DNA of 64,000 nt from Candidatus Parcubacteria bacterium (GCA_039799225.1 JBDLTF010000005.1:2884-66883), one strand, 5' to 3'; shown: positions 1 through 58,746, numbered from the stretch's first letter. Program-made: numbers and translations. Notes: a model not told the origin generated them from the sequence alone.

Positions 1-830
1 TGATAGCTGATTACCATGCGCTCAATTTCATTCAGAACAAAGATGAGATGCGTGATAATATCCTCAATCTCACAATCGATTACTTAGCGCTTGGCCTCGA
101 CCCCAAGAAAGCAATCATTTTCAAGCAATCTGATGTCTCCGCGCATACCGAGCTCGCATGGATCTTCGACACTATAGTCACTGTGCCATACCTCATGCGC
201 GCGCATGCCTACAAAGATGCAGAGGCTAAGGACAAGGAGATCTGCGTAGGAACGTTCAATTATCCCGTATTGATGGCTGCCGACATTCTTCTCTACGACA
301 CAGATGTGGTACCAGTAGGACAGGATCAGAAGCAACACGTCGAATACGCGCGCGATATTGCGCTCAAGTTCAACCATACGTTCAAAGAGGAGGTTTTCAA
401 ACTTCCCGAGCCATTGATATTGGAAAATGTAGCGACTGTTCCTGGCGTTGACGGCAAGAAGATGTCCAAGAGCTACAACAACACCATTCCTCTTTTTGCT
501 TCTCGTGAAGAAATCACAAAAGCAGTCATGGGTATCGTCACTGATTCTGGCGGAGATGTCCCGATGAATGTATACAATATCCACAAGCTTTTCAGATCAG
601 CAGGGGATTTGAAGCCACTCTACGATGCTAATAAGGGCAAATACAAAGCTCTCAAAGAAGCGCTCATCGAAGATATCGACACATTCATCAAGCCTCTACG
701 AGAACGAAGGGCAGAGATCGCTAAGGATGAAGCTGCTGTATTGGAAATACTCAAAGAAGGAGGCTTGAGAGCCAAAGAATTGGCTGACAAGAAACTCGCG
801 GAAGTGAAGAAGGTTATCGGAGTTGCATAA
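1..830 (+). CDS. trpS: tryptophanyl-tRNA synthetase, 5'-truncated at window edge
   Basis: Reading frame is open from position 3 (IADYHALNFIQNKDE precedes the listed Met). Class I TrpS motifs GQDQKQH and KMSKS are present. Colinear with E. coli TrpS. Confidence 0.85.
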   Translation, partial: IADYHALNFIQNKDEMRDNILNLTIDYLALGLDPKKAIIFKQSDVSAHTELAWIFDTIVTVPYLMRAHAYKDAEAKDKEICVGTFNYPVLMAADILLYDTDVVPVGQDQKQHVEYARDIALKFNHTFKEEVFKLPEPLILENVATVPGVDGKKMSKSYNNTIPLFASREEITKAVMGIVTDSGGDVPMNVYNIHKLFRSAGDLKPLYDANKGKYKALKEALIEDIDTFIKPLRERRAEIAKDEAAVLEILKEGGLRAKELADKKLAEVKKVIGVA

Positions 831-2686: not shown

Positions 2687-2698
2687 TCTCGTCATTAA

Positions 2699-2750
2699 TT
2701 CTCTATCAGTTCTTCACGATTCCTTCATACGGAATTGATATGATCGTGTG
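2699..2750 (+). promoter_or_regulatory. conserved upstream motif, copy 1 (TTCTCTATCAGTTCTTCACGATTCCTTCATA followed by TTGATATGAT)
   Basis: About 85% identical over about 30 nt to minus-strand copies at 11849-11900 and 25014-25065. Followed by an extended -10-like TGATATGAT. Lies 25-45 nt upstream of the ATG at 2775. Confidence 0.5.
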
Positions 2751-2774
2751 CATTAGTAGGTAACCGCACACATC

Positions 2775-2969
2775 ATGTCACTAGATTCAAAAGATCTCGA
2801 ACTTATCGAGAGTATCGTATACAAAAATAGCGACGACATCGCCATATCTATCGCACGCAGCTTCGAACGACTCGAGGAACGCATCGATGGGTCAGAGTCA
2901 CGCATTTATTCACGCCTCGCAGACATAGAAGACCGCATAGAGGCGAGCAGTCTTGCCGTACTCGATTAA
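2775..2969 (+). CDS. hypothetical small acidic/coiled-coil protein (64 aa)
   Basis: ORF preceded by the conserved upstream motif and an AGGT-like SD. No recognisable family. Confidence 0.35.
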   Translation: MSLDSKDLELIESIVYKNSDDIAISIARSFERLEERIDGSESRIYSRLADIEDRIEASSLAVLD

Positions 2970-5319: not shown

Positions 5320-6528
5320 ATGAATACTCAAGACCGAAAAGTAGTTATTTTCCTCGTCGCACTTCCCGCACTTATCTTCGCTTTCTTTATCGGTATGTAT
5401 GTCGGAGGAGGGAAGACCACTGGTGGCAGCGTACTCGGAGATAATACTGCCGCTGTTTCAGATGATGAGTTCGCACCATTCTGGAAAGCATGGCGTGAGC
5501 TCGATGACAAATATGTCGCCGCAGCAAGTACCACGCCTGAACAGCGCGTCTGGGGATCTATTCAAGGTCTCGCATCTTCATATGGCGACCCATACACCGT
5601 CTTCTTCCCTCCAGTAGAAGCAAAGATGTTCGAAGAAGAAATCTCGGGTAACTTCGAAGGTGTCGGTATGGAAATCGGCGTGAAGGACAAACAGCTTCAG
5701 GTCGTTTCTCCTATCAAGAATAGCCCTGCCGAGCGTGCAGGCGTCAAAACAGGCGACCTCATTCTCAAGATTGGTGATAAGAGCACTATGGATATGTCGA
5801 CTGATGCCGCAGTGAAACTCATTCGCGGCGCGAAGGGAACTCCTGTTGTGATCACCTTCCTCCCGAAGGGAAGTTCCAAGCCTGTCGAACGCACTATCAT
5901 CCGCGATATTATCGATATACCTACTCTAGATACTGAGAGGAAAGAGGGTGGTATCTTCGTCATCCGTCTCTATAGCTTCACCGCAAATTCCGCCAATCTC
6001 TTCAGGAATGCACTCCGCGAATTTGTACTTTCTGGCGACAAGAAAATCATCCTCGATCTTCGCGGCAATCCAGGCGGCTACCTCGATGCATCGTGGGATA
6101 TGGCTTCATGGTTCCTCCCTGCAGGCAAGACTGTGGTCACTGAGGACTTCGGAGGTAATGCAGAACCTAAGGTCTATCGCAGTAAGGGATATGATATCTT
6201 CAGCAGCAACCTCAAGATGATTATCCTCGTCGATGGTGGCTCAGCATCAGCATCAGAGATTCTCGCAGGTGCACTCAAGGAAAATGGTGTGGCCAAGCTC
6301 CTCGGAACCAAGACTTTCGGAAAGGGATCCGTTCAGCAGCTCATCTCCATCACCCCAGACACCTCTCTCAAGGTTACTATCGCTCGCTGGCTCACTCCAG
6401 CCGGACACAACCTCTCACACGATGGTCTCGAACCTGACTACAAGGTCGAACCTACCGAGAAGGACATTACAGACAAGAATGATGTTCAAATGTCCAAGGC
6501 AGTTGAAATATTGAACGCAGCACAGTAG
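5320..6528 (+). CDS. ctpA: carboxyl-terminal processing protease (S41 family, PDZ-containing)
   Basis: TM anchor, PDZ segment GVKTGDLILKIGDK, S41 motifs LRGNPGGY and DGGSASASEILAGAL. Start moved to Met-18 (MNTQDRK) to avoid a divergent overlap with the upstream gene. Confidence 0.8.
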   Translation: MNTQDRKVVIFLVALPALIFAFFIGMYVGGGKTTGGSVLGDNTAAVSDDEFAPFWKAWRELDDKYVAAASTTPEQRVWGSIQGLASSYGDPYTVFFPPVEAKMFEEEISGNFEGVGMEIGVKDKQLQVVSPIKNSPAERAGVKTGDLILKIGDKSTMDMSTDAAVKLIRGAKGTPVVITFLPKGSSKPVERTIIRDIIDIPTLDTERKEGGIFVIRLYSFTANSANLFRNALREFVLSGDKKIILDLRGNPGGYLDASWDMASWFLPAGKTVVTEDFGGNAEPKVYRSKGYDIFSSNLKMIILVDGGSASASEILAGALKENGVAKLLGTKTFGKGSVQQLISITPDTSLKVTIARWLTPAGHNLSHDGLEPDYKVEPTEKDITDKNDVQMSKAVEILNAAQ

Positions 6529-10177: not shown

Positions 10178-11563
10178 CTATCCGAGTTTCTTAAGAGCAC
10201 TGTCGACTCTCTTAATAGCCTCTTCCCTGCCGAGCACCGCTGCGGAAATGAAAGGGTCTGGGGATTTATCTTGTCCGGTGAGTGACATGCGGAGTGGCCA
10301 GAGGACATCGCCTTTACCATTGGCTTCTACGTACGGCCAGAGTGCATTTTTGACAGTGTCAGCGGTAAATTCCTTGGTGGAAATTCCTGAAAGAATCTCT
10401 GAAACTTTGGTGAGATGAGCAGAAGCGGCCTTTGCATCAGGATTTTTCTTCCAGAGAAGTGTATCTGTCGCATACTCCTTGATCATGTGTACAAACGCAA
10501 GCTCACCATCGGCTGCAAGCATAGTGGAGACTTCTGCGAATGTAGTGATCTTGTCGCGCAAAATAGGTACAAGTCTCTTGAATGTATCACTCTTAGGTAC
10601 GACCCATTCTGGCAAGAATGGAATAGTGTACTCAATAAAATCAGCATCGGAAAGTTTCAAAACATACTGACGATTGAACCACTTGAGTTTCTCACCATCG
10701 AAGACTGCGCCTGACTTCTGCACGCGATCAAGAGAGAACTCCTTCACGATTTCGTCTACTGACAATACTTCCCTGTCGTCTGACGGATGCCAACCGAGGA
10801 GTGAAAGATAGTTGACGATGGCTTCGCGGATAAATCCCTTGTCGCGATATTCACTGATAGGAACGGCACCCTTCCTCTTGGAAAGCTTTGATTTATCGGC
10901 AGAAAGAAGGAGTGGAATATGCGCATAGTGAGGTATAGGAGCGCCTATAGCCTCAAATATGAGAATCTGGCGCGGAGTATTGGAGATATGATCCTCACCA
11001 CGAATGATGTGAGTGATACCCATCTCGTGATCGTCGATGACCACAACGAGATGGAACACAGGCTCGTCTTCACTCTTGGCGATGACGAAGTCACCGAGCT
11101 CAGTGGTATCAAACTCGATGCGTCCGCGAATGATATCATCGAAGACAACTTTCTTGTTGGGATTCTTGAAACGGATAACGCTCGAGCGGAGCTGACTAGG
11201 TTCTATCTGTCTGCCCTCCTTGGCGGCATTTTTGATAGTCTCTTGATTCTTGGCAGTCTCGTCGGAAACGTAGGCGTGACCAGATGCAATCATCTGGTGA
11301 ATATATGTCTTGTACATCTCGGTACGATCAGACTGACGATAAAATTCATCATATTCAAGACCGAGCCACTTCAAACTCTCGACGATGTTTTCCTCATATT
11401 CCTTCTTGGAGCGCTCCTTGTCAGTATCTTCAATACGGAGGATGAATTTACCCTTGTTCTGGCGCGCATATATCCACGAAAAAAGCGCCGTACGGTATGA
11501 TCCAGCATGGAAATAGCCTGTCGGCGACGGGGCAAAGCGGGTTACTACTTTTTGGGTAGACAT
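10178..11563 (-). CDS. gltX: glutamyl-tRNA synthetase
   Basis: VVTRFAPSPTGYFHAG (HIGH-type) and KLSKRKG (KMSKS). Confidence 0.9.
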   Translation of the reverse strand: MSTQKVVTRFAPSPTGYFHAGSYRTALFSWIYARQNKGKFILRIEDTDKERSKKEYEENIVESLKWLGLEYDEFYRQSDRTEMYKTYIHQMIASGHAYVSDETAKNQETIKNAAKEGRQIEPSQLRSSVIRFKNPNKKVVFDDIIRGRIEFDTTELGDFVIAKSEDEPVFHLVVVIDDHEMGITHIIRGEDHISNTPRQILIFEAIGAPIPHYAHIPLLLSADKSKLSKRKGAVPISEYRDKGFIREAIVNYLSLLGWHPSDDREVLSVDEIVKEFSLDRVQKSGAVFDGEKLKWFNRQYVLKLSDADFIEYTIPFLPEWVVPKSDTFKRLVPILRDKITTFAEVSTMLAADGELAFVHMIKEYATDTLLWKKNPDAKAASAHLTKVSEILSGISTKEFTADTVKNALWPYVEANGKGDVLWPLRMSLTGQDKSPDPFISAAVLGREEAIKRVDSALKKLG

Positions 11564-11758
11564 GAGGGTAGTATAGCAGAAATCAGCGGTTTATAAACAC
11601 AAAAGCCCCCGAAAGGGCTCTTGTATTGTCTGTTGTGCGGATCACCAGTAAAAGTGACTCGCGAGCCCAGAATGGATTACCCATTCCAGTCCACCAGTCG
11701 AGATTTAATCGACATAGAAAGTCTATCAACTTGTCAGAGCACCGTCAAATAAGTTCAC

Positions 11759-11826: not shown

Positions 11827-11848
11827 TCCGCGGAATTACTTCCGCGCT

Positions 11849-11900
11849 AAAATCATACACAATCAAAATGAAGGAATTGTGATGAAGTGATAGAGAAACT
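11849..11900 (-). promoter_or_regulatory. conserved upstream motif, copy 2 (minus strand GTTTCTCTATCACTTCATCACAATTCCTTCATT followed by TTGATTGTGTATGAT)
   Basis: Sits just upstream, in the sense orientation, of the tRNA-like element and the gltX leader. 23/27 identical to copy 1 over the core. Confidence 0.5.
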
Positions 11901-11908
11901 ATGATGAT

Positions 11909-12883
11909 CTATTTGATCACCGAATTCTTGACCGTCCCATGCTCGAGAAAATCAATTACATTCTGCGCAACCACCTTCGCCATCTCGTTACGGGCAGACT
12001 CACGTGCAGAGGCTATATGAGGCGTTAGGATGACATTAGGGAGCTTGGCGAGGCCACGGGCAAGCTTGGGTTCAAATTCGAAAACATCGAGGCCAGCGCC
12101 CGCAATAGTGCCGTCTTGTAGAGCTTTGACTAGAGCATTTTCATCAACAACAGGACCACGAGCGGTATTAATCAAGAATGCCGTCTGCTTCATCATCTTA
12201 AGACGAAGTTCATTCATGAGATGATGAGTCGAATCGAGAAGAGGTACGTGGAGACTCACAACATCAGACTGAACAAGAACTTCCTCAATCGTCTCACAGC
12301 GACGTGCGTGGTAATCATGATCGAGTGTCTCATTACGATTTACATCATAATAGAAAATTTCCATATCGAAGCCGTGATAACAATGATGCGCAACCCTCTC
12401 CCCTATTCTGCCTGCGCCAATGAGGCCAAGCTTCTTACCCTTGAGATCAGTACCGACCAGATTCATCGGTGACCAGCCTTTGTATTTACCAGCGCGGGTG
12501 AAGCGATCTGCTTCGACCATACGAGTAGTGAGTCCGAGCATAAGTGCGAGTGTATGCTCAGCAATAGTGTGCGCATAATTCCCCGGAGCATTAGCCGCCT
12601 GAATACCGCGCTTCTTTGCTTCTACAGTATCGATATTGTCAAACCCAGTTGCATAGTTCGCGTAGAATTTAACGCTTGGCACTGCTTCAAACAAAGTTGC
12701 ATCAACCTTGTCGGTCAATAATGAGATAACTGCATCATACGGCTTCTTCTGAAGTGCTTTGATGATTTCTCGCTGACTTGGAACACAATCATGAGGATAT
12801 ACATCAACATCGTATCCTCTCTTCTTGAGCATTTCGATAGCAATATCTGGAATGACGCGTGTGATATAGACTGATTTGGACAT
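11909..12883 (-). CDS. D-isomer-specific 2-hydroxyacid dehydrogenase (glycerate/hydroxypyruvate reductase family)
   Basis: NAD-binding GLIGAGRIGERVA. Catalytic-domain architecture typical of this family. 324 aa. Confidence 0.8.
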   Translation of the reverse strand: MSKSVYITRVIPDIAIEMLKKRGYDVDVYPHDCVPSQREIIKALQKKPYDAVISLLTDKVDATLFEAVPSVKFYANYATGFDNIDTVEAKKRGIQAANAPGNYAHTIAEHTLALMLGLTTRMVEADRFTRAGKYKGWSPMNLVGTDLKGKKLGLIGAGRIGERVAHHCYHGFDMEIFYYDVNRNETLDHDYHARRCETIEEVLVQSDVVSLHVPLLDSTHHLMNELRLKMMKQTAFLINTARGPVVDENALVKALQDGTIAGAGLDVFEFEPKLARGLAKLPNVILTPHIASARESARNEMAKVVAQNVIDFLEHGTVKNSVIK

Positions 12884-12996
12884 ATTACTAGTGATTATAC
12901 TACCAAAATGACATTTATGAATTTAGTTGAAATTATAATGCTATTTTAGCACGATTTTCTATTTACTCTTGAAAGCTAATCAATAATAAAAAATAT

Positions 12997-13899
12997 TTAA
13001 GAACCATTTAATTCTATTATTGCATTTAACTCACTAATAAAGTCATAAATAAGATCATTTGAAATAATTACGCCCAGACTTTCATAATCATCACCACTTA
13101 CCATAGATGGTATACCGATCCTGCAACCATACTGGTCAACCGCCAAACCTCCGGAATTACCGTGACTAATTTTTGCGGAAGTTATTATTAAACCATCTTT
13201 TGCTAATAAACTACTTACAATTCCATCAGTTATAGTAAGTGCATATCCACCACTGATTGCTGGATATCCGTAGATTCTCACAGGCTCACCGAGCTTCACA
13301 TTCTCATTCCTACAGTATTTATTACTATCATAAGCCGGGAAATTCTTAGGATAAACTCCGTATGTCTTACCTTCATCCATATCATAATAAACATCATCTA
13401 TCTGTACAAAAGCGAGGTCGTATTGTTCACTCAAATCAGGGATTACAATTGGATATGCGGTGTATATTTCATCAGGTGCACCACTAGAAGGATCGGGTAG
13501 TATAACAAGGCAACTTGAAGTATCTTCTGCCCCTTTAGGAATTATATGAGCATTAGTTAGAACAAGTCCGTCCTCCGTCAAAATAGTACCTGAGCCGCCA
13601 GAGGTATCTTCTTCTTTTTCTCCAGTACAGTAAATATTCACAACTGCTGATGCTATATCTAGGTTTGTTTGATCACTTGCGGGTTTTATTCTCTTACTAT
13701 TATAAAAAAATACTAGTCCAACAATTACAATCAACAAAAAGATACCGCACGCAACAACTACTCTACTTTTAGTAAAATATTTTTTTGTTTTATTGAGAGC
13801 TTGAGTCTGATCTTCTCGAAGTATTTGTACCTCTGCACCGCATGACGTGCAAAATTTTATATTTTCTTTTATTTCATTCCCACATGATGTACAAAACAT
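12997..13899 (-). CDS. double-zinc-ribbon / TM / trypsin-like serine protease (S1-like) protein
   Basis: N-terminal FCTSCGN...FCTSCGA. One TM. His (TNAHI), Asp (DLAFVQID) and Ser (GNSGG) catalytic triad motifs. Confidence 0.7.
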   Translation of the reverse strand: MFCTSCGNEIKENIKFCTSCGAEVQILREDQTQALNKTKKYFTKSRVVVACGIFLLIVIVGLVFFYNSKRIKPASDQTNLDIASAVVNIYCTGEKEEDTSGGSGTILTEDGLVLTNAHIIPKGAEDTSSCLVILPDPSSGAPDEIYTAYPIVIPDLSEQYDLAFVQIDDVYYDMDEGKTYGVYPKNFPAYDSNKYCRNENVKLGEPVRIYGYPAISGGYALTITDGIVSSLLAKDGLIITSAKISHGNSGGLAVDQYGCRIGIPSMVSGDDYESLGVIISNDLIYDFISELNAIIELNGS

Positions 13900-13904
13900 A
13901 AAAA

Positions 13905-14372
13905 TTACTTAGCTGCGACAGAAATGCCGCAATTACCACAGAATTTTAGCTCTTTTATGGCTTGCGTACCACAACTTGAGCAATAACTTATCCGAATATC
14001 TTTATCCTTGGGAAAAAATTCAGTCTCAACAACTTCAGATTTAACTGCATCCTGTGAACCACTACTAAGTAAACTTATTCGGATATGATATTCTTCGTTA
14101 GTGATTTTGCCATCTACTAGGAGCTGATTTGTTTCTGCAAGAGGCTCCATTTGAGTAAACTGATCTCCATTCAATGTTACGCCGTATTTACAGACCGGAC
14201 AAGACAAGTAATGCTCTATTTTGTAAGGAAAAACTGGAATAAAAAATAAAGTAAACCAGGTCTTTATTTTGGTCAAAACCCAGTAGTGCTCGTTGTGGCA
14301 GTGGCTGCAAAGTTTTTTGAAAACTGGACCAAAGTTTTTAATTGTTTGAAAGCCCCAGCCAAAAATAATCAT
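13905..14372 (-). CDS. zinc-ribbon-containing small protein
   Basis: CSHCHNEH...CPVCKYG and C-terminal YCSSCG...FCGNCG. One hydrophobic segment. Confidence 0.5.
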   Translation of the reverse strand: MIIFGWGFQTIKNFGPVFKKLCSHCHNEHYWVLTKIKTWFTLFFIPVFPYKIEHYLSCPVCKYGVTLNGDQFTQMEPLAETNQLLVDGKITNEEYHIRISLLSSGSQDAVKSEVVETEFFPKDKDIRISYCSSCGTQAIKELKFCGNCGISVAAK

Positions 14373-14377
14373 GATTT

Positions 14378-15274
14378 TTAATTTTCAGCTAAATAATCAT
14401 AAACTTCCTGTGGCACCTCTACCCCATTCGCAATCGCTTTTCGTAAATAAATTTGAGCATTTATAGGATCATCATTTCTTGCATATGACAATCCAAGCCA
14501 ATAAGCAATGTATGTATCCGCATCAAGAGTTATGCTGGAAAATATTGAGATGGCTTGAGGATAATTTTCATTGAAATAGTAAGCCATACCGAGGTTTTGC
14601 TTGGCAATCTGCAAATCAGTCAATTGGACTGCACGTTGAGCATATTTCAATGCTTTCGGGTAATCAACATACTGAGGAGCATTATCTTCTAAGTCCATGT
14701 AAAAAAGTGCGAGCGAGTTATTAATTTGAAAATCATTAGGATCTTTTGAATAAGCCTTATTAAAGGCAAGCAAAGCTGCATTTGGCTTACTCTCAAGCAT
14801 TGCTATTTCTCCCGCAATCAAATAGTAATCGAAAGAATCACTCAGTGCTATTATAAGAGCTTCTTTGAAGGTGCTGATTGCCAAATCATTTTGTCCCTCA
14901 CCTGAATAGACGTAGGCAAGATTTTTAAGAGTGTTTACCTTATTTTCATTTGAGACCGCATCATGTGATGCTTGCTGGAGTTGATTTAAAGCTTGCTGAC
15001 TATTTCCAGAGTCATAGTTTGAAACTGCACTATTATTTTTCTCTATAACAGCATCATCCATAGATGCATATACAATCCATCCAACGATAGCAACAATAAA
15101 AAGCAGTTTAAATACCCTACCTATATTTCTCGATGCCTTAAATTTTGTTTTTCTAAAATTTGGGATACTTTGTTTTTGAGATAAACTGGTTTTAACTCCT
15201 AAAAGTTCTTTACCACAATTAGTACAGAACTTATTCAAACTATCTGATTTTGTGCCACAATTTTCGCAAAACAT
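14378..15274 (-). CDS. double-zinc-ribbon / TM / TPR-repeat protein
   Basis: N-terminal FCENCG...FCTNCG. One TM (FKLLFIVAIVGWIVYASM). TPR-like repeats in the C-terminal half. Confidence 0.65.
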   Translation of the reverse strand: MFCENCGTKSDSLNKFCTNCGKELLGVKTSLSQKQSIPNFRKTKFKASRNIGRVFKLLFIVAIVGWIVYASMDDAVIEKNNSAVSNYDSGNSQQALNQLQQASHDAVSNENKVNTLKNLAYVYSGEGQNDLAISTFKEALIIALSDSFDYYLIAGEIAMLESKPNAALLAFNKAYSKDPNDFQINNSLALFYMDLEDNAPQYVDYPKALKYAQRAVQLTDLQIAKQNLGMAYYFNENYPQAISIFSSITLDADTYIAYWLGLSYARNDDPINAQIYLRKAIANGVEVPQEVYDYLAEN

Positions 15275-15283
15275 ATTTGTATT

Positions 15284-15769
15284 TTATTTTAGGACGTTAT
15301 CAGGTAACTTATTCAGCTCAAATAAACTAATGATAACTGAAATAAAAAGTGCAATCTCTCCAAGACTTGATATGATTTCGACCTTCTGAAAAGCTATAAC
15401 AATGATAGTAAGTACTAAAATTATAGTGGCTATCCTGTGATCTGCCTTTGCTAACCTAATAAGCCCCCATATTCCGAATACAATGATCATTAGACCACCT
15501 ATGAATCCTACTGTACCTAGAAATACCTCGGACACATCACCAGCAAATGGTAAAAAGAGAAGACATATCGTTACTATCCACGGCCAAACAATCAACTTAC
15601 AGAGCAATTTATTTGATATTTTTCTGTTGGGTATCTTTATCTTCTCGTTAGATATTGCTGTATTAGCGATTTTATGACTTGAACTGTTTCCTATGGCCTT
15701 TCCACACCTAGCACAAAACATTGCACTATTTTTTATTTCATTTCCACATTCCCTGCAAAATTTGTTCAT
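15284..15769 (-). CDS. double-zinc-ribbon N-terminal multi-pass membrane protein
   Basis: N-terminal FCRECG...FCARCG followed by 3-4 predicted TM helices. Confidence 0.55.
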   Translation of the reverse strand: MNKFCRECGNEIKNSAMFCARCGKAIGNSSSHKIANTAISNEKIKIPNRKISNKLLCKLIVWPWIVTICLLFLPFAGDVSEVFLGTVGFIGGLMIIVFGIWGLIRLAKADHRIATIILVLTIIVIAFQKVEIISSLGEIALFISVIISLFELNKLPDNVLK

Positions 15770-15803
15770 AAATTATTTATAAATAATAGACACTTTATTT
15801 GAG

Positions 15804-15846
15804 GTATTTGACTTAAACATAATAATACAATAACTAAGTCAAATAC
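15804..15846. promoter_or_regulatory. perfect 12-bp inverted repeat GTATTTGACTTA-N19-TAAGTCAAATAC (candidate operator) upstream of the zinc-ribbon gene
   Basis: Exact palindrome arms 35-75 nt upstream of the start at 15769. Contains a TTGACT -35-like hexamer. Confidence 0.4.
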
Positions 15847-15977
15847 ACTATAATCCAGACTTTGGGTAATGGTGGATAATTAAATTTATTAATAAACCAT
15901 CATAGCTCGTCAAAAACTGCCCTAAGACCAAAAGAGCCGCCTTGCGGCGACTCTTCTGGTCGAACAAATCTGAAATA

Positions 15978-16481
15978 CTATCCCTTGATGCCGGCACCGA
16001 CTGCAGCTGCAGCACGGAAGAGCTTCATGATGATGTTGCCCTTGGAATCCTTGATTGGAAGATCCTTAGAAGCATCAAACTTCATGTCACCATCATCTGA
16101 GTGGAGCATAGCGTAATAGATACCTCCTTCAACAGTCGGCTTGGTGAGAGTGATCTTGCCTGTGTTGATACCCTTTGCGAAGTACATTGTTCCGATAACA
16201 TCTCCTGGCTGACCATTCTTGTCAGCGTGGATAGCAACGAATCCGCCATTGGCGAGCTGGACTGATGAAAGGAATACAACGTTACCAGGATACTGGTCGG
16301 ACATAACAACACGGTTGATCTCGGTGGCTGCACCTCCGCTGGTATCACCCAAGGCGGTAGTGTCCATCGTGTCAGATCCCTTGTTTCCGAAGACCATGAT
16401 ACCGATGACGATAAGGGCGATGATGACGATAGCTGTGACGATCCACTGCCATGCCTTGATGCCGCTCTGTTCTGGATTCAT
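15978..16481 (-). CDS. hypothetical membrane-anchored protein
   Basis: N-terminal TM (WQWIVTAIVIIALIVIGIMVF) and a roughly 130-aa extracytoplasmic domain. No family recognised. Confidence 0.5.
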   Translation of the reverse strand: MNPEQSGIKAWQWIVTAIVIIALIVIGIMVFGNKGSDTMDTTALGDTSGGAATEINRVVMSDQYPGNVVFLSSVQLANGGFVAIHADKNGQPGDVIGTMYFAKGINTGKITLTKPTVEGGIYYAMLHSDDGDMKFDASKDLPIKDSKGNIIMKLFRAAAAVGAGIKG

Positions 16482-17735: not shown

Positions 17736-17781
17736 GGCTGGAATTATAGCACTAAAGATAACGGGATAGGTAGATGTTGTT

Positions 17782-22804: not shown

Positions 22805-23866
22805 TTAGCGTTGAAGAACTTTCGATATGTCATAGATAGGCATCATGATGGAGAGCGCAATCGCTCCGACCACGATTCCCATGCCAGCCATCATCATGGG
22901 TTCAATGAGTGCTGTGGCACGTTTTAACTTGTGATCAATGTCTCTATCTATGATGTCAGCCGCGCGAACCATCGATTTGCCCAAGTTCCCCGAAGCTTCA
23001 CCGGCTAAGAGAAGCGGTGATACATATGGTGTCTTACGACATATGTTTCGAAGAATTACTCCAAGCGGTATTCCTTTCGATACTTGTTCGGCCTGAGAAT
23101 TCATATGGGAAGCAAGCGTGAGAAGAGAAACCGAAGCTGACGCACGAGTGTATGCGTTGACTGCTGATATTCCAGAATCGATTAATGTTCCACAAGATCT
23201 AAGGAACACAGATAACGAATAGGTATGGATGATATTTCCAATAAGCGGCACGTGAACAATACATATATGCATGATTTTTTTGAATACATGGGTGGTTCGA
23301 TACAGCACCAACGCAACCAATGCGATCGCGAAAATTCCTGCAAAAATAAAAAGTCCGTAGTCGATGAGGTGCTCAGAAATAAACATAACGATGCGGGTGA
23401 GAATTGGCAGATCAACACGAAGACTCTTAAGCATTGGAATAATTTGCGGCATAACTCCTCGCACAAGACCAATTGTGAGAATGCCCGCAAAAGCGCCAAT
23501 GACTACCGGATATGTCAGTGCTGAGAGAGATTTGCGACGAATATCATCTTGTTGTTCCATGAGCATACGTGCCATTGCGAGTGATTGTGCTAAGCCACCC
23601 GATTGTTCACCATGATCGATAAGACCAACAATCATCGGTGGTATGCGTACAGTTGAAGATAGTGACGTGGCGAGAGATGTACCACTAAGAATGCCGTGAT
23701 GCGCACGCATTACTTGTTTGGCTTGATTCTGCTTCATGCCCTGCGCAACTGTCTCGAGAGCTTTGTCGATACTCAAACCTGAAGATACATAAAGTTCTAT
23801 GTGTTCAAAAAGAAGCATGAGATCCCTGCGACGCCAACGCGCTCTATGTATACGAGTCGATGCCAT
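22805..23866 (-). CDS. pilC: type II secretion / type IV pilus platform protein (GspF/PilC family)
   Basis: Polytopic membrane protein with GspF-domain features. Located next to the GspE ATPase. Confidence 0.75.
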   Translation of the reverse strand: MASTRIHRARWRRRDLMLLFEHIELYVSSGLSIDKALETVAQGMKQNQAKQVMRAHHGILSGTSLATSLSSTVRIPPMIVGLIDHGEQSGGLAQSLAMARMLMEQQDDIRRKSLSALTYPVVIGAFAGILTIGLVRGVMPQIIPMLKSLRVDLPILTRIVMFISEHLIDYGLFIFAGIFAIALVALVLYRTTHVFKKIMHICIVHVPLIGNIIHTYSLSVFLRSCGTLIDSGISAVNAYTRASASVSLLTLASHMNSQAEQVSKGIPLGVILRNICRKTPYVSPLLLAGEASGNLGKSMVRAADIIDRDIDHKLKRATALIEPMMMAGMGIVVGAIALSIMMPIYDISKVLQR

Positions 23867-23870
23867 ATAC

Positions 23871-25013
23871 TCAATCAGCTAATACTCGAGCAACTTCTTG
23901 CTCTGTGGTAATTCCCCATTCCACTTTCTCGTGACCATCCTCACTCATAGGAACAAAACCTGCTGATTTTGCATACGCGAGCATGCTGGCAGAGCTCGAA
24001 CGCTCAACAATAAGTTCCTTCAATCCCGCGTCGACCGCGCAGGCTTCTGCAATCACAGATCTCCCGTTATATCCCGTATGTCGACACCTATCACATCCAT
24101 CTAATAAGCACTCTCGACACATGGCGCGGACCAACCGTTGAGCAACGACGAGACGAAGCGTGGATGCGAGAAGATACGGATCAACACCCATATCCATGAG
24201 GCGTGGAATTGCTTCGAGCGCAGAATTGGTATGTATTGTCGACAGCACAAGATGTCCCGTGAGTGCAGTATGAATAGCAACGCGCGCAGTTTCAGCATCA
24301 CGAATCTCACCAACCATGATGACATCAGGATCTTGTCGCAACGCTGAACGGAGACCTGAAGCGAAGGTCACTCCATGACTGTGTCGAATATGTACCTGAC
24401 GAACGAGTGGTATCTCATACTCGACTGGATCTTCAAGAGTGATTATGGATATGGGCTCGCGAGATTTGAGAGACAGACATGAATGAAGTGTCGTCGTCTT
24501 CCCCGAACCAGTCGGACCAGACACGAGAATGAGTCCAGATGCTTGTGCGAGTGCACCATCGATTGCACGAACATGGTCCGGCGTGAATCCGAGCTTGGCG
24601 AAAGACACTTCCGACGATATGCGTGCAGGCAGAAGACGTATGACAGCATTCTCACCATGATATGTAGGCATGAATGAGATGCGTATATTGTAATCATCGC
24701 CAGATATCTCAGACTTCCATCTCCCATCCTGCGGAACAGCATGTATATCTGTACGTGCACCCGAAAGTATTTTGAGACGTGCGATGATTTCCTCATGGAG
24801 CCTGCGTGACATGAGCGCCACTTCCTCGACCTGACCATCTATACGAAGACGTATACGGACACCGTCCTCAAATGGATCATAGTGAACATCCGAAGCACGC
24901 ACCGAAGCAGCATATGAAAGGAATGCATCTATAGCTTCTGTTGCCGTGGATGGCTCGTGGTCGAAGATTTTTTGTGCTGATTTTCCGATTATTTCTTGTG
25001 TGTTCATGGACAC
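23871..25013 (-). CDS. pilB: type II/IV secretion ATPase (GspE/PilB family)
   Basis: Walker A VSGPTGSGKTT, Asp/His boxes, tetracysteine CRECLLDGCDRCRHTGY zinc motif. Start is either GTG at 25013 or ATG at 25007. Confidence 0.9.
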   Translation of the reverse strand: MSMNTQEIIGKSAQKIFDHEPSTATEAIDAFLSYAASVRASDVHYDPFEDGVRIRLRIDGQVEEVALMSRRLHEEIIARLKILSGARTDIHAVPQDGRWKSEISGDDYNIRISFMPTYHGENAVIRLLPARISSEVSFAKLGFTPDHVRAIDGALAQASGLILVSGPTGSGKTTTLHSCLSLKSREPISIITLEDPVEYEIPLVRQVHIRHSHGVTFASGLRSALRQDPDVIMVGEIRDAETARVAIHTALTGHLVLSTIHTNSALEAIPRLMDMGVDPYLLASTLRLVVAQRLVRAMCRECLLDGCDRCRHTGYNGRSVIAEACAVDAGLKELIVERSSSASMLAYAKSAGFVPMSEDGHEKVEWGITTEQEVARVLAD

Positions 25014-25065
25014 ACTTTATCAAACCACTATGAAGGAACCGTGATGAAGTGGTAGAGAAACAATG
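25014..25065 (-). promoter_or_regulatory. conserved upstream motif, copy 3 (minus strand GTTTCTCTACCACTTCATCACGGTTCCTTCATA followed by TTTGATAAAGT)
   Basis: Immediately 5' of the pilB start. Same core as copies at 2699-2750 and 11849-11900. Confidence 0.5.
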
Positions 25066-28974: not shown

Positions 28975-29943
28975 TCAGAGAGGATAATACATGTCGAGGG
29001 CGTTGCGAATCTGGATGCCGGATGCGATGCATACCTCAATATTGTGCACCGACTTTAACAAATGTTGCAACGAATCAATCACATCAATCCTCGTTGGATC
29101 CTCGATAGCAATCGTCAGATTACCACCATGGACCATGATAGGAACAATGTTATACCTGCGAGCTATCACTCGAGGAACAATGGCGATAACATCGTCAGGA
29201 ATATTCAGCTTTCCAGGTGCGACCACTTCGCACCCAAAATGAGCACCGTTTGCAGTGAGGACTTGCTCCTCCGTGATAACTTCCTTTTCGAGCAAGGCGG
29301 CAACGGCATCTTTCTCACCATCAGCTGTCGCTGACACAATTTCAGCGACCTGGTCACCCGTGATGAACCCGAGATCAATGAGAATGTGTACAAGATAGTC
29401 CCTGTTACCAGGATTGAAAACATGCGGCTTAGATTTCTGGTAATCAGCAATCTCCCTCGCATCGAACAGGATTGCTTTCCAAGTCGTATGTTCTGCGTTA
29501 GTCGGAATCATCCGCACAACGCCCGCTTTCGCAAGCTCGATAATCTTGCCACCCCATCCTGATGGAATAAACAGAGTATGACCTTGCATGATGCGTTCTG
29601 GCAAACCTTCACCATCATGAATCTCGAACTCCCTCCCCAGCGGAGCCGGAACTGAGAGTATACTGATCCACGTCGGATATTCACCCTGGAACTCCAAGAA
29701 TTCAAGGAATGAAGTAAAATCAACACCGAAAAAACCTCCTTTGATGCGTCCCTTCGTCGCAAACTGATGAGCGATGCGATTGATAATCTTCATTACATCT
29801 TGGACTTGATACCACCCCCAATCCCCGTATCTTTTCTCAGGAATGAGCTGGGATAGTTCTCTAAACCGATACACTTCGGGGGCTACAACCTCAGGCCACG
29901 GGACATCTAACAACCGATGCACTAATACTTTTGGTTTTTTCAT
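28975..29943 (-). CDS. protein with C-terminal GspE N-terminal (MshEN-type) domain and an unknown N-domain
   Basis: C-terminal PRVIARRYNIVPIMVHGGNLTIAIEDPTRIDVIDSLQHLL matches the T2SSE_N/MshEN fold signature. No ATPase domain. Confidence 0.6.
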   Translation of the reverse strand: MKKPKVLVHRLLDVPWPEVVAPEVYRFRELSQLIPEKRYGDWGWYQVQDVMKIINRIAHQFATKGRIKGGFFGVDFTSFLEFLEFQGEYPTWISILSVPAPLGREFEIHDGEGLPERIMQGHTLFIPSGWGGKIIELAKAGVVRMIPTNAEHTTWKAILFDAREIADYQKSKPHVFNPGNRDYLVHILIDLGFITGDQVAEIVSATADGEKDAVAALLEKEVITEEQVLTANGAHFGCEVVAPGKLNIPDDVIAIVPRVIARRYNIVPIMVHGGNLTIAIEDPTRIDVIDSLQHLLKSVHNIEVCIASGIQIRNALDMYYPL

Positions 29944-57753: not shown

Positions 57754-58746
57754 CTACAACTTCCTCCCTTTGAGTGCCAAAGCAATGAGATGATCTATGA
57801 GTTCATGTGTATCACTTCCCACTGCGCGTAGAGATTTTGGCATAAGAGATTCATCAGTGAGTCCGGGAAGTGTATTCACTTCGAGCACATAGATACCGCG
57901 ACGGGGATGGATAATGAAGTCCGACCTGGAATAGTGCCTCAGACCAAGCGCACGATGCACTTTGCCTGCCAATTCTTCGAGAGACTTCTTGATAGACTCT
58001 GCGAACGTAGCGGGAACTATTTCATGTGACTTACCTTGATACTTCGCTTCGAAGTCGAAGAAGCCATTGTGTGGACGAATCTCAACTGGCGGAAGTGCGT
58101 ACAGATCATGGTCACGGAATCCTTCGATAACTCCGCAGGTCGCTTCAATTCCGGGAATGAATTCCTCGATGAGCACGATATCACCATGAGCCGCGGCAGC
58201 GAGAAGTGCTGGCGATAGACCTGCGAAGTCACGGACCACAGAAACACCCACTGATGAACCGCTCGAAACCGGCTTGATAACCGCCGGTAAGATGAAGGTT
58301 GTGAATAATTCACGCGCTATAGCATCTGAATCTTCAATGACGCGGCTCGAAGGGACTTCTTTCCAGTACGGACTCTTAATACCGTGTGCCGCGAATGATT
58401 TCTTGGAGAGAATTTTGTTCATACCAACTGCAGAGCCGAGTGCATCAGAGCCAGTGAATGGAATTCCGTGAGCAGCGAGGATGGCCTGTACCTTCCCATC
58501 TTCTCCATATGATCCATGGAGCGCATTGAATGCGACATCTATCTTGGAATGGAGATTTTCTGGATCTACTGCAAGACCATCGATATGCCAGTTACCCTGA
58601 CGATCAATAAAAATATCCTTGGGATGATACTTATGCTCGAAATGTTTACGGAGTGCAGCGAGAACATTGCCACCGGAATTGAGGGAGACGTCATATTCAT
58701 TGCTCGGACCTCCGCGGAGCACGCCGACACGGATGAGATGCTTCAT
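57754..58746 (-). CDS. ddl: D-alanine--D-alanine ligase
   Basis: ATP-grasp fold. N-terminus RVGVLRGGPSNEYDVSLNSG. 330 aa. Confidence 0.9.
   Translation of the reverse strand: MKHLIRVGVLRGGPSNEYDVSLNSGGNVLAALRKHFEHKYHPKDIFIDRQGNWHIDGLAVDPENLHSKIDVAFNALHGSYGEDGKVQAILAAHGIPFTGSDALGSAVGMNKILSKKSFAAHGIKSPYWKEVPSSRVIEDSDAIARELFTTFILPAVIKPVSSGSSVGVSVVRDFAGLSPALLAAAAHGDIVLIEEFIPGIEATCGVIEGFRDHDLYALPPVEIRPHNGFFDFEAKYQGKSHEIVPATFAESIKKSLEELAGKVHRALGLRHYSRSDFIIHPRRGIYVLEVNTLPGLTDESLMPKSLRAVGSDTHELIDHLIALALKGRKL

Follow-up and report, generated by a model that had tools for sequence, protein, structure and literature searches.

We have identified a 41-nt block that stands upstream of promoters in three places within a 64,000-nucleotide (64-kb) stretch of DNA (hereafter the window), whose proteins are recorded under a Candidatus Parcubacteria/Paceibacterota MAG. 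The block is very probably a protein-binding array. We assign a probability of about two in three to the reading that it would act as a class-II activator site of an autoregulated two-component system, and the protein predicted to bind it is probably a conserved OmpR-family regulator whose gene is flanked by the same arrays in relatives.

The core of the element, TTCTCTAYCASTTCWTCACNRTTCCTTCAT, matches the window exactly three times, at the places where an earlier inspection by a model (the sequence-only reading) had put it, and 100 dinucleotide-preserving shuffles of the window gave no match to the core, even with three mismatches permitted. With a 56-nt PWM derived from these copies, the three score 83-84 bits; since the next best site in the window reaches -7 bits, the copies are discrete and the window holds no degenerate extras. 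When the three copies are read pairwise, 26-27 of the 30 core positions agree and no indels occur. The earlier account had also found no indels but had counted 23-25 of 27 and had stopped short on the 5' side, where a gap-free alignment extends the conserved block by a further 11 nt (TC-TCAT) to 41 nt in all; its 3' end is TTCCTTCAT. Within the block are four octamers (TTCATCAY, TTCTCTAT, TTCATCAC and TYCTTCAT) whose 11-nt spacing turns the block into a tandem pair of 22-bp boxes, and each box joins two 11-bp half-sites that are unlike. As had been claimed, every copy is intergenic and has the orientation of the unit downstream of it. Copies 1 and 2 start 0-2 nt 3' of the stop codon of the upstream gene, which for copy 2 is a 2-hydroxyacid dehydrogenase gene that it directly follows. 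A mini-ORF (MKEx-stop) on the strand opposite the array was considered and rejected, as it points into the 3' end of the upstream gene and is not conserved.

Each copy is followed, exactly 10 nt 3' of its last octamer, by a TAnnnT hexamer. TGn lies immediately 5' of the hexamer in two of the three, so that the extended -10-like box proposed from the sequence stands for all copies in its hexamer and for two in its TGn. Among 16 distinct sites from the window's lineage the 10-nt distance recurs in 15, most sites have TGn or TTGR just 5' of the hexamer, and none has a TTGACA-like -35 hexamer, in keeping with the earlier statement that the three copies have no canonical -35. If the -10 hexamer is placed at -12 to -7, the array reaches from about -63 to about -23, and the place of the -35 hexamer coincides with the most variable spacer. 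From the -10 positions, transcription is predicted to start near 2751 for copy 1, giving a leader of 24 nt, and near 11845 for copy 2; because only 6 nt separate the -10 of copy 3 from the pilB ATG at 25007, the pilB mRNA is predicted to be leaderless. Over the 16 sites the array matches itself with an identity of 0.50 when shifted by 11 nt (lag 11) and of 0.70 when shifted by 22 nt (lag 22), compared with 0.31 +/- 0.08 at lag 11 in shuffled arrays. In the window's lineage lag 14 is as strong as lag 11 and the four octamers are not equivalent, so a composite site for more than one protein is possible. A generic detector that specifies four mutually similar phased octamers, 10 nt and an extended -10 matched this promoter class only, among the loci gathered up to that point. 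Two arrays adjoining rpsP (L020 minus strand, L039) have no -10 at the standard distance.

Table 1. Positions of arrays, promoters, downstream units, tRNA-like RNAs and regulator loci in the window and in related loci (L numbers).
Feature	Record	Position (strand)	Details
Core match, copy 1	window	2699-2728 (+)	
Core match, copy 2	window	11868-11897 (-)	
Core match, copy 3	window	25030-25059 (-)	
Array copy 1 (41-nt block)	window	2688-2728 (+)	CTCGTCAT 2688-2695, TTCTCTAT 2699-2706, TTCTTCAC 2710-2717, TCCTTCAT 2721-2728; 3-nt spacers
Array copy 2 (41-nt block)	window	11908-11868 (-)	ATCATCAT, TTCTCTAT, TTCATCAC, TCCTTCAT
Array copy 3 (41-nt block)	window	25070-25030 (-)	TTCATCAT, TTCTCTAC, TTCATCAC, TCCTTCAT
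Extended -10, copy 1	window	2736-2744 (+)	TGA TATGAT; hexamer 2739-2744
-10 hexamer, copy 2	window	11857-11852 (-)	TATGAT
Extended -10, copy 3 (pilB)	window	25022-25014 (-)	TGA TAAAGT; hexamer 25019-25014
Extended -10, gltX	window	11578-11570 (-)	TGCTATACT; 6 nt 5' of ATG 11563
Extended -10, murG	window	~17743-17751	
Extended -10, other gene	window	~58753-58761	gene at 58746
Target 1	window	2775-2969 (+)	64-aa coiled-coil-like protein
Target 2	window	11846-11759 (-)	5' hairpin and tRNA-like RNA
5' hairpin	window	11846-11829 (-)	GNRA loop
tRNA-like RNA	window	11826-11759 (-)	
Canonical promoter after tRNA-like domain	window	11748-11720 (-)	TTGACG, 17 nt, TGATAGACT
GC-rich hairpin and T-run (terminator)	window	11619-11604	
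Target 3, pilB	window	23871-25007 (-)	T2SSE ATPase; first gene of pilus cluster
pilC	window	22805-23866 (-)	T2SSF; next gene after pilB
Orthologs of copy 1	L002, L008-L013		
Ortholog of copy 2	L016/L018		
Ortholog of copy 3	L003		
tRNA-like RNA	L016	7299-7366	
tRNA-like RNA	L026	4714-4783 (-)	
tRNA-like RNA	L031	6807-6877	
tRNA-like RNA	L003	5665-5732	
tRNA-like RNA	L021	139-206	
tRNA-like RNA	L017	~139-207	
tRNA-like RNA	L039	~430-520 (-)	
Regulator locus	L026		JAGOQK01, MAG with orthologs of copies 1 and 3; arrangement as L020
Regulator locus	L039		same genus; arrangement as L020
Regulator locus	L028		Hain_H41; arrangement as L020, degenerate
Regulator locus	L031		regulator 63% identical; array downstream of regulator gene
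Regulator locus	L033		regulator 60% identical, orphan; array downstream of regulator gene
Regulator locus	L035		regulator 55% identical, orphan; array downstream of regulator gene
Conserved leader behind regulator gene	L020	~10818-10900	
Conserved leader behind regulator gene	L026	~5680-5760	
Conserved leader behind regulator gene	L028, L031, L033, L035		

To examine conservation, 185,579 species genomes (one per species) were scanned with the exact pattern, which is too strict to include TTTCTTCAT variants. Two matches were obtained, both in the Paceibacterota MAG JAGOQK01 and both at orthologous positions, before the 64-aa ORF (L002) and before pilB (L003), with DNA identities to the window of 82-86%. 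A looser pattern yielded 12 metagenome loci and had no matches in viral contigs; one metagenome match (L024), without TCAT octamer 1 and without a -10, was set aside as chance. The array keeps its position before pilB and the 64-aa ORF in relatives. Same-register arrays also precede pilB in L037 and L038. The type IV pilus operon, which the sequence-only reading had placed in the regulon, is a conserved member, with arrays in the window and in three other lineages. Orthologs retain the octamers and the -10 but diverge in the 10-nt spacer and in the flanks; the few variable positions are those that also vary among paralogs. This pattern is a footprint of selection on a DNA site. The 11-nt unit is explicit in L031, L006 and L033. 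It is plain in the L031 array (ATCTTCAT, TTCTTTAT, TTCTTCAG, TTCTTCAT), and in the more distant L006 the promoter of the 64-aa ORF has six perfect 11-nt units, TTCTTTAT-CAn, which run into TCTTGATACTAT with the register to the -10 unchanged. Synteny with L002 (4698) ends exactly at the 5' edge of the array (window 2688); upstream of the array lies an ABC transporter gene in the window and L008, and a tRNA-synt_1b (class I aminoacyl-tRNA synthetase) gene in L002 and L004.

The window contains no regulator or kinase gene, and the link to a regulator therefore rests on relatives. In seven related loci (L020, L026, L039, L028, L031, L033 and L035) arrays flank the gene for an OmpR-family regulator (Response_reg plus Trans_reg_C), which is usually followed by a histidine kinase gene. 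Two identical arrays lie on either side of the 222-aa regulator gene in L020, and the forward one, directly 3' of the regulator stop codon, is followed by a -10, a conserved hairpin leader and then the histidine kinase; the kinase leader beside the regulator gene is a further target of the array. The adjacency of array and regulator persists across lineages at 55-78% regulator identity, with neighbouring genes that vary (tuf/S10 vs rpsB/tsf). Such adjacency shows that the locus is co-regulated, not that its protein binds.

Arrays and regulator loci also co-vary. Octamers differ from lineage to lineage, and those next to the regulator gene recur at the other targets of the same lineage. In L031 the array ATCTTCAY, TTCTTTAT, TTCTTCAG, TTCTTCAT occurs both before the kinase leader and before a tRNA-like RNA; in Hain_H41 related arrays precede the 64-aa ORF (L004), pilB (L037) and the kinase (L028); and in metagenome 3300037810 T-rich units lie behind the regulator gene (L035), before pilB (L038, on the same contig as L035) and before the 64-aa ORF (L006). 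L002, L003 and L026 are all from JAGOQK01. The recognition helix of the regulator varies between these groups (SNAVESH, SNAVETH, SNTVEAH), and this change in step with the octamers points to the regulator as the putative binder, though it is only suggestive.

The regulator, whose predicted receiver aspartate is D51, scored below every cut-off in NCBIfam, including those of the YycF, MtrA and RpaB models; its best score was 200 bits for RppA (cut-off 250), and the PhoB models gave 155-158 bits (cut-offs 270-296). The kinase, as read from its sequence, appears to have about six membrane helices, no PhoR-like architecture and no recognisable sensor domain. In all lineages, whether or not a kinase gene comes next, the regulator gene is followed by the conserved transcript start GGTTATGTGTCGACATAAC-CTTAT-AAC ... 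GCACA-ATCTTCC. Searches of this leader returned nothing at the Rfam gathering score, and its near-palindrome could form a hairpin in the RNA or serve as an operator in the DNA. The leader's UCUUCC stretch is conserved as nucleotides and not as codons, and small peptides in the kinase leader and in the RNA tails were rejected because the peptides vary while the nucleotides are kept.

Together, these observations suggest a mechanism that we infer (binding, activation, starts and signal alike) from the architecture, conservation, co-variation and linkage of the arrays. Two dimers of the phosphorylated OmpR/PhoB-family regulator would occupy one DNA face head-to-tail between about -63 and -23; the monomer nearest the promoter would touch RNA polymerase (class II activation), and the polymerase would be recruited to an otherwise weak extended -10 promoter. 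Activation by two dimers is proposed from the geometry of OmpR/PhoB-type activators, and the two-component system would be autoregulated, since the regulator's own locus carries the same arrays. Features typical of such operators are found here: tandem repeats one helical turn apart (lags 11 and 22, vs shuffles), a proximal repeat in the -35 place at a fixed 10-nt gap, and, in relatives only, a candidate cognate winged-helix regulator with a site at its own locus. The comparative evidence supports the original suggestion of a promoter-upstream site for a dedicated activator, and likewise that the element defines a regulon.

The closest known parallels are found among Pho regulators. PhoB covers two 11-bp tandem repeats (22 bp), contacts sigma and recruits polymerase (PMC4447250), and cooperative binding of Streptomyces PhoP takes place on arrays of two to eight direct repeat units, whose length of 11 nt is required (PMC2275107). 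The array resembles the sites of PhoB (E. coli) and PhoP (Streptomyces coelicolor) in its 11-bp tandem direct repeats with a 22-bp unit per dimer; it is also like pho boxes in having its proximal unit in the -35 place and a site at the regulator's own operon, and its TCAY octamer core recalls the CTGTCAT and GTTCAY of Pho boxes. In E. coli the pho box lies 10 bp 5' of the -10, in place of the -35. The system differs in that its regulator is not an equivalog of any named regulator, and its four units are position-specific and not equivalent, unlike those of Pho boxes. The sub-cut-off PhoB scores and the finding of no pst or pho genes (phosphate uptake) among the targets seen argue against the Pho regulon proper.

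Other systems share part of this design. WalR/YycF, MtrA and RpaB (HLR1) are essential 'master' OmpR-type regulators, widely conserved, that use direct repeats about one helical turn apart and control core envelope or growth genes in lineages with few other regulators; their motifs and regulons differ from those described here, and we know of none that controls type IV pili or tRNA-like RNAs. Streptomyces SARPs recognise heptamer direct repeats at 11-bp intervals, the last about 8 bp from the -10 and overlapping the -35, but they combine a bacterial transcriptional activation domain with the lack of a receiver, whereas the regulator here has a receiver and Trans_reg_C. As a two-component system predicted to switch on pilus genes, it is comparable to PilS-PilR and ComD-ComE. 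ComCDE regulates itself through direct repeats, and the membrane domain of its kinase is multi-pass. PilR is an NtrC-type sigma-54 activator and ComE, a LytTR protein, uses 9-bp repeats at a distance of about 21 bp, whereas here the regulator is OmpR-type and the promoter a sigma-70 extended -10. Nor were any competence genes found among the targets seen, which give the initial guess of a competence-like regulon no support.

The array might play the same activator role for another protein (a second OmpR-type, another winged-helix or a SARP-like factor), with the regulator/kinase locus a mere target. These genomes hold more two-component genes, such as the HisKA kinase inside the L028 ribosomal-protein cluster, and adjacency is guilt by association alone; yet that adjacency survives 55-78% regulator identity despite different neighbours, and the recognition helix alters in step with the octamer consensus. 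The repeat geometry is moreover that known for the OmpR/PhoB family (PMC4447250, PMC2275107). Taken with these points, and notwithstanding the non-equivalence of octamers within one array, a different binder appears unlikely.

The ordinary promoters of the window bear on whether RNA polymerase itself reads the block, as the upstream element of an alternative sigma factor or as a lineage-specific UP or -35-like strong-promoter module for highly expressed genes (those of stable RNAs, ribosomal proteins and an abundant small protein). Comparison of the sequences upstream of 35 gene starts in the window showed that the usual promoter is a bare extended -10, TGnTAnnnT, without a recognisable -35. 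Often, as at gltX, murG, the gene at 58746 and pilB, this box lies only 6-7 nt 5' of the ATG, so that leaderless mRNAs would be widespread in this Paceibacterota genome. Array promoters have a -10 of the same type as gltX, murG and other genes, and the array is thus an add-on to an ordinary, housekeeping box. That observation weighs against the alternative sigma factor entertained earlier, as does the length of the block, whose 41 nt with 11/22-nt internal repeats go far beyond a sigma region-4 site. A direct role for polymerase could account for the RNA genes, rpsF-ssb and rpsP among the targets, for the missing canonical -35 and for positions fixed relative to the -10; but canonical tRNA genes (tRNA-Glu, tRNA-Pro, tRNA-Ala), rpoB and rpoC have no array, and canonical TTGAC -35 elements are used elsewhere, including at the same loci as the arrays. 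A UP element was rejected on the grounds that the array strand is C/T-rich, not A/T-rich, that it runs across the -35 position to -23 and that its sequence varies by lineage. Octamers that vary between lineages are not expected if the reader is the alpha C-terminal domain or sigma region 4. We therefore regard direct reading by polymerase as quite improbable.

It is very improbable that the element works as RNA, for instance as a 5'-UTR motif or sRNA target in a transcript that starts at a more distant upstream promoter. Its pyrimidine-rich strand is partly like the 16S rRNA 3' end (ATCAC..TCCTT, by eye), but the upstream stop is only 0-2 nt from the start of copies 1 and 2, the pilB array is only 16 nt from the ATG with its -10 inside those 16 nt, conservation tracks the helical register of DNA, no secondary structure is apparent on reading and no covariation was seen. 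Least probable of all is a mobile or selfish repeat (MITE-like, or the outward-facing promoter of an element) spread among intergenic sites: although paralogs are 87-90% identical and rearrangements adjoin some arrays (the L002 synteny break at the 5' edge; the rpsP arrangement in L020 vs L039), the terminal-inverted-repeat check named at the outset found no inverted repeats flanking any copy, viral contigs gave no matches, the only two exact matches in the species genomes are at orthologous positions, orthologs are kept under selection with variable positions common to orthologs and paralogs, and all copies lie between genes, share the orientation of the unit downstream and keep their register with a -10.

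With the activator array as the preferred reading, we turn to the units that it precedes. The 64-aa coiled-coil-like protein belongs to no Pfam or NCBIfam family that we could find, and has 538 homologues at E <= 0.001; identity is 67-100% among the 120 listed, most of which come from Patescibacteria. Its gene is usually beside cysS, and its homologues carry the labels prefoldin-like, gas vesicle and archaellum component, a variety that probably reflects the coiled coil. Array-driven transcripts open with a stable hairpin after the predicted start at the 64-aa ORF (GTGTGC...GCACAC, within 2746-2770 (+)), in L014 (GCGCATTAT...ATAATGCGC, right after the predicted start, ~13085-13117) and at the tRNA-like RNA. 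In relatives the array targets include rpsF-ssb (L014), rpsP (L020, L039) and a secreted repeat protein (L014), a list that, like the density of sites, is biased by the retrieval of most loci through the motif. In the neighbourhood of the pilus cluster, 4 kb from pilB, a stand-alone 322-aa protein (28975-29943 (-)) has as its C-terminus an MshEN domain, which we take to be the c-di-GMP-binding N-terminal module of some pilus ATPases. The stretch 12000-16000 has a GC content of 0.35-0.40 (0.45-0.51 elsewhere), encodes zinc-ribbon, TPR and trypsin-like protease proteins, and may be acquired DNA.

Copy 2 had been assigned to the leader of gltX. A terminator (a GC-rich hairpin with a T-run) stands between the RNA downstream of copy 2 and gltX, and gltX has its own leaderless promoter behind it; copy 2 thus serves a separate gene, that of a stand-alone tRNA-like RNA. 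A 5' hairpin with a GNRA loop comes first. In the tRNA-like domain that follows, the acceptor stem has 7 bp and the D mini-arm 3 bp, the T arm is canonical and a long arm lacks an anticodon; folding to minimum free energy gives a cloverleaf (z = -3.1). The RNA scored 24.5 bits against Rfam tRNA (gathering score 29) and 12.9 bits against tmRNA_permuted (threshold 47), and ARAGORN made no tRNA or tmRNA call there. A reading as tmRNA was rejected: the 3' tail, when read, offers no plausible tag frame, the tRNA-like domain forms one contiguous piece, and the ARAGORN and Rfam results were negative.

Since MAFFT misaligned the acceptor stems, the tRNA-like family was collected with a structural scan (Python) for a T arm and a perfectly paired 7-bp acceptor stem across the loci gathered to that point. 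The scan recovered canonical tRNAs, which were called by ARAGORN and none of which had an array upstream, and six non-canonical elements, none called by ARAGORN and all six with an array 40-65 nt upstream. Two more (L017 and L039) were found by reading the sequence. All the tRNA-like elements found have an array upstream, in loci that were mostly retrieved through the array motif. They are cloverleaves with a 3-4-bp D mini-arm, and, because the loop of the long arm varies from 4 to 12 nt among relatives, they are taken to have no anticodon. Acceptor stem sequences differ with pairing kept. G1-C72, G2-C71, G3.U70 and A73 occur in the window copy, L016 and L026, as in the window's genuine tRNA-Ala, and these constitute the AlaRS identity set. 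Some of the RNAs follow the lineage's convention for an encoded CCA end.

Each tRNA-like element is preceded by a 5' hairpin and followed by a canonical promoter, TTGAC-(16-17 nt)-TGnTAnnnT, beyond which come 70-130 nt and a terminator (about 110 nt in the window). The -35 and -10 of this promoter are conserved in all relatives while the spacer varies (L003, L017, L021, L016), from which we predict an array-dependent distal and a canonical proximal promoter at these loci; the proximal start in the window would lie near 11713 (-). The short RNA from the proximal promoter contains a conserved CUGGUGGA or CUGGAGCC. Because a repeat of the 5' acceptor strand within the RNA tails is not conserved in L016 or L021, the idea that it offers an alternative pairing was dropped.

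A broader reading joins these results: the array would mark the regulon of a master two-component system of Paceibacterota, whose main outputs would include undescribed anticodon-less tRNA-like RNAs that could be processed and charged like tRNA-Ala but used off the ribosome, and that would be co-induced with type IV pili. We consider this tentative and rather doubtful. The off-ribosome uses could be as alanine donors for envelope chemistry, decoys or processing modules for the small RNA attached to them.

Bacteria of the candidate phyla radiation (CPR) are uncultured and have few regulators, and a role in host contact and DNA uptake is ascribed to their type IV pili. To our knowledge transcription control in this radiation is almost unstudied; no relevant work emerged from our literature searches on CPR promoters, on two-component systems with pili in CPR and on tRNA-like RNAs in CPR. 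The element described here is most likely of a known kind, an array of response-regulator boxes, in a lineage for which no regulon has been described. It provides a concrete cis-element with a candidate regulator from a family conserved across Paceibacterota at 55-78% identity, and a first target list for a CPR array-linked regulon that includes the type IV pilus operon. These predictions may be tested without cultivation, by use of recombinant protein and existing groundwater metatranscriptomes. The array promoters further lead to a family of non-canonical tRNA-like RNAs that go undetected in standard tRNA and Rfam searches.
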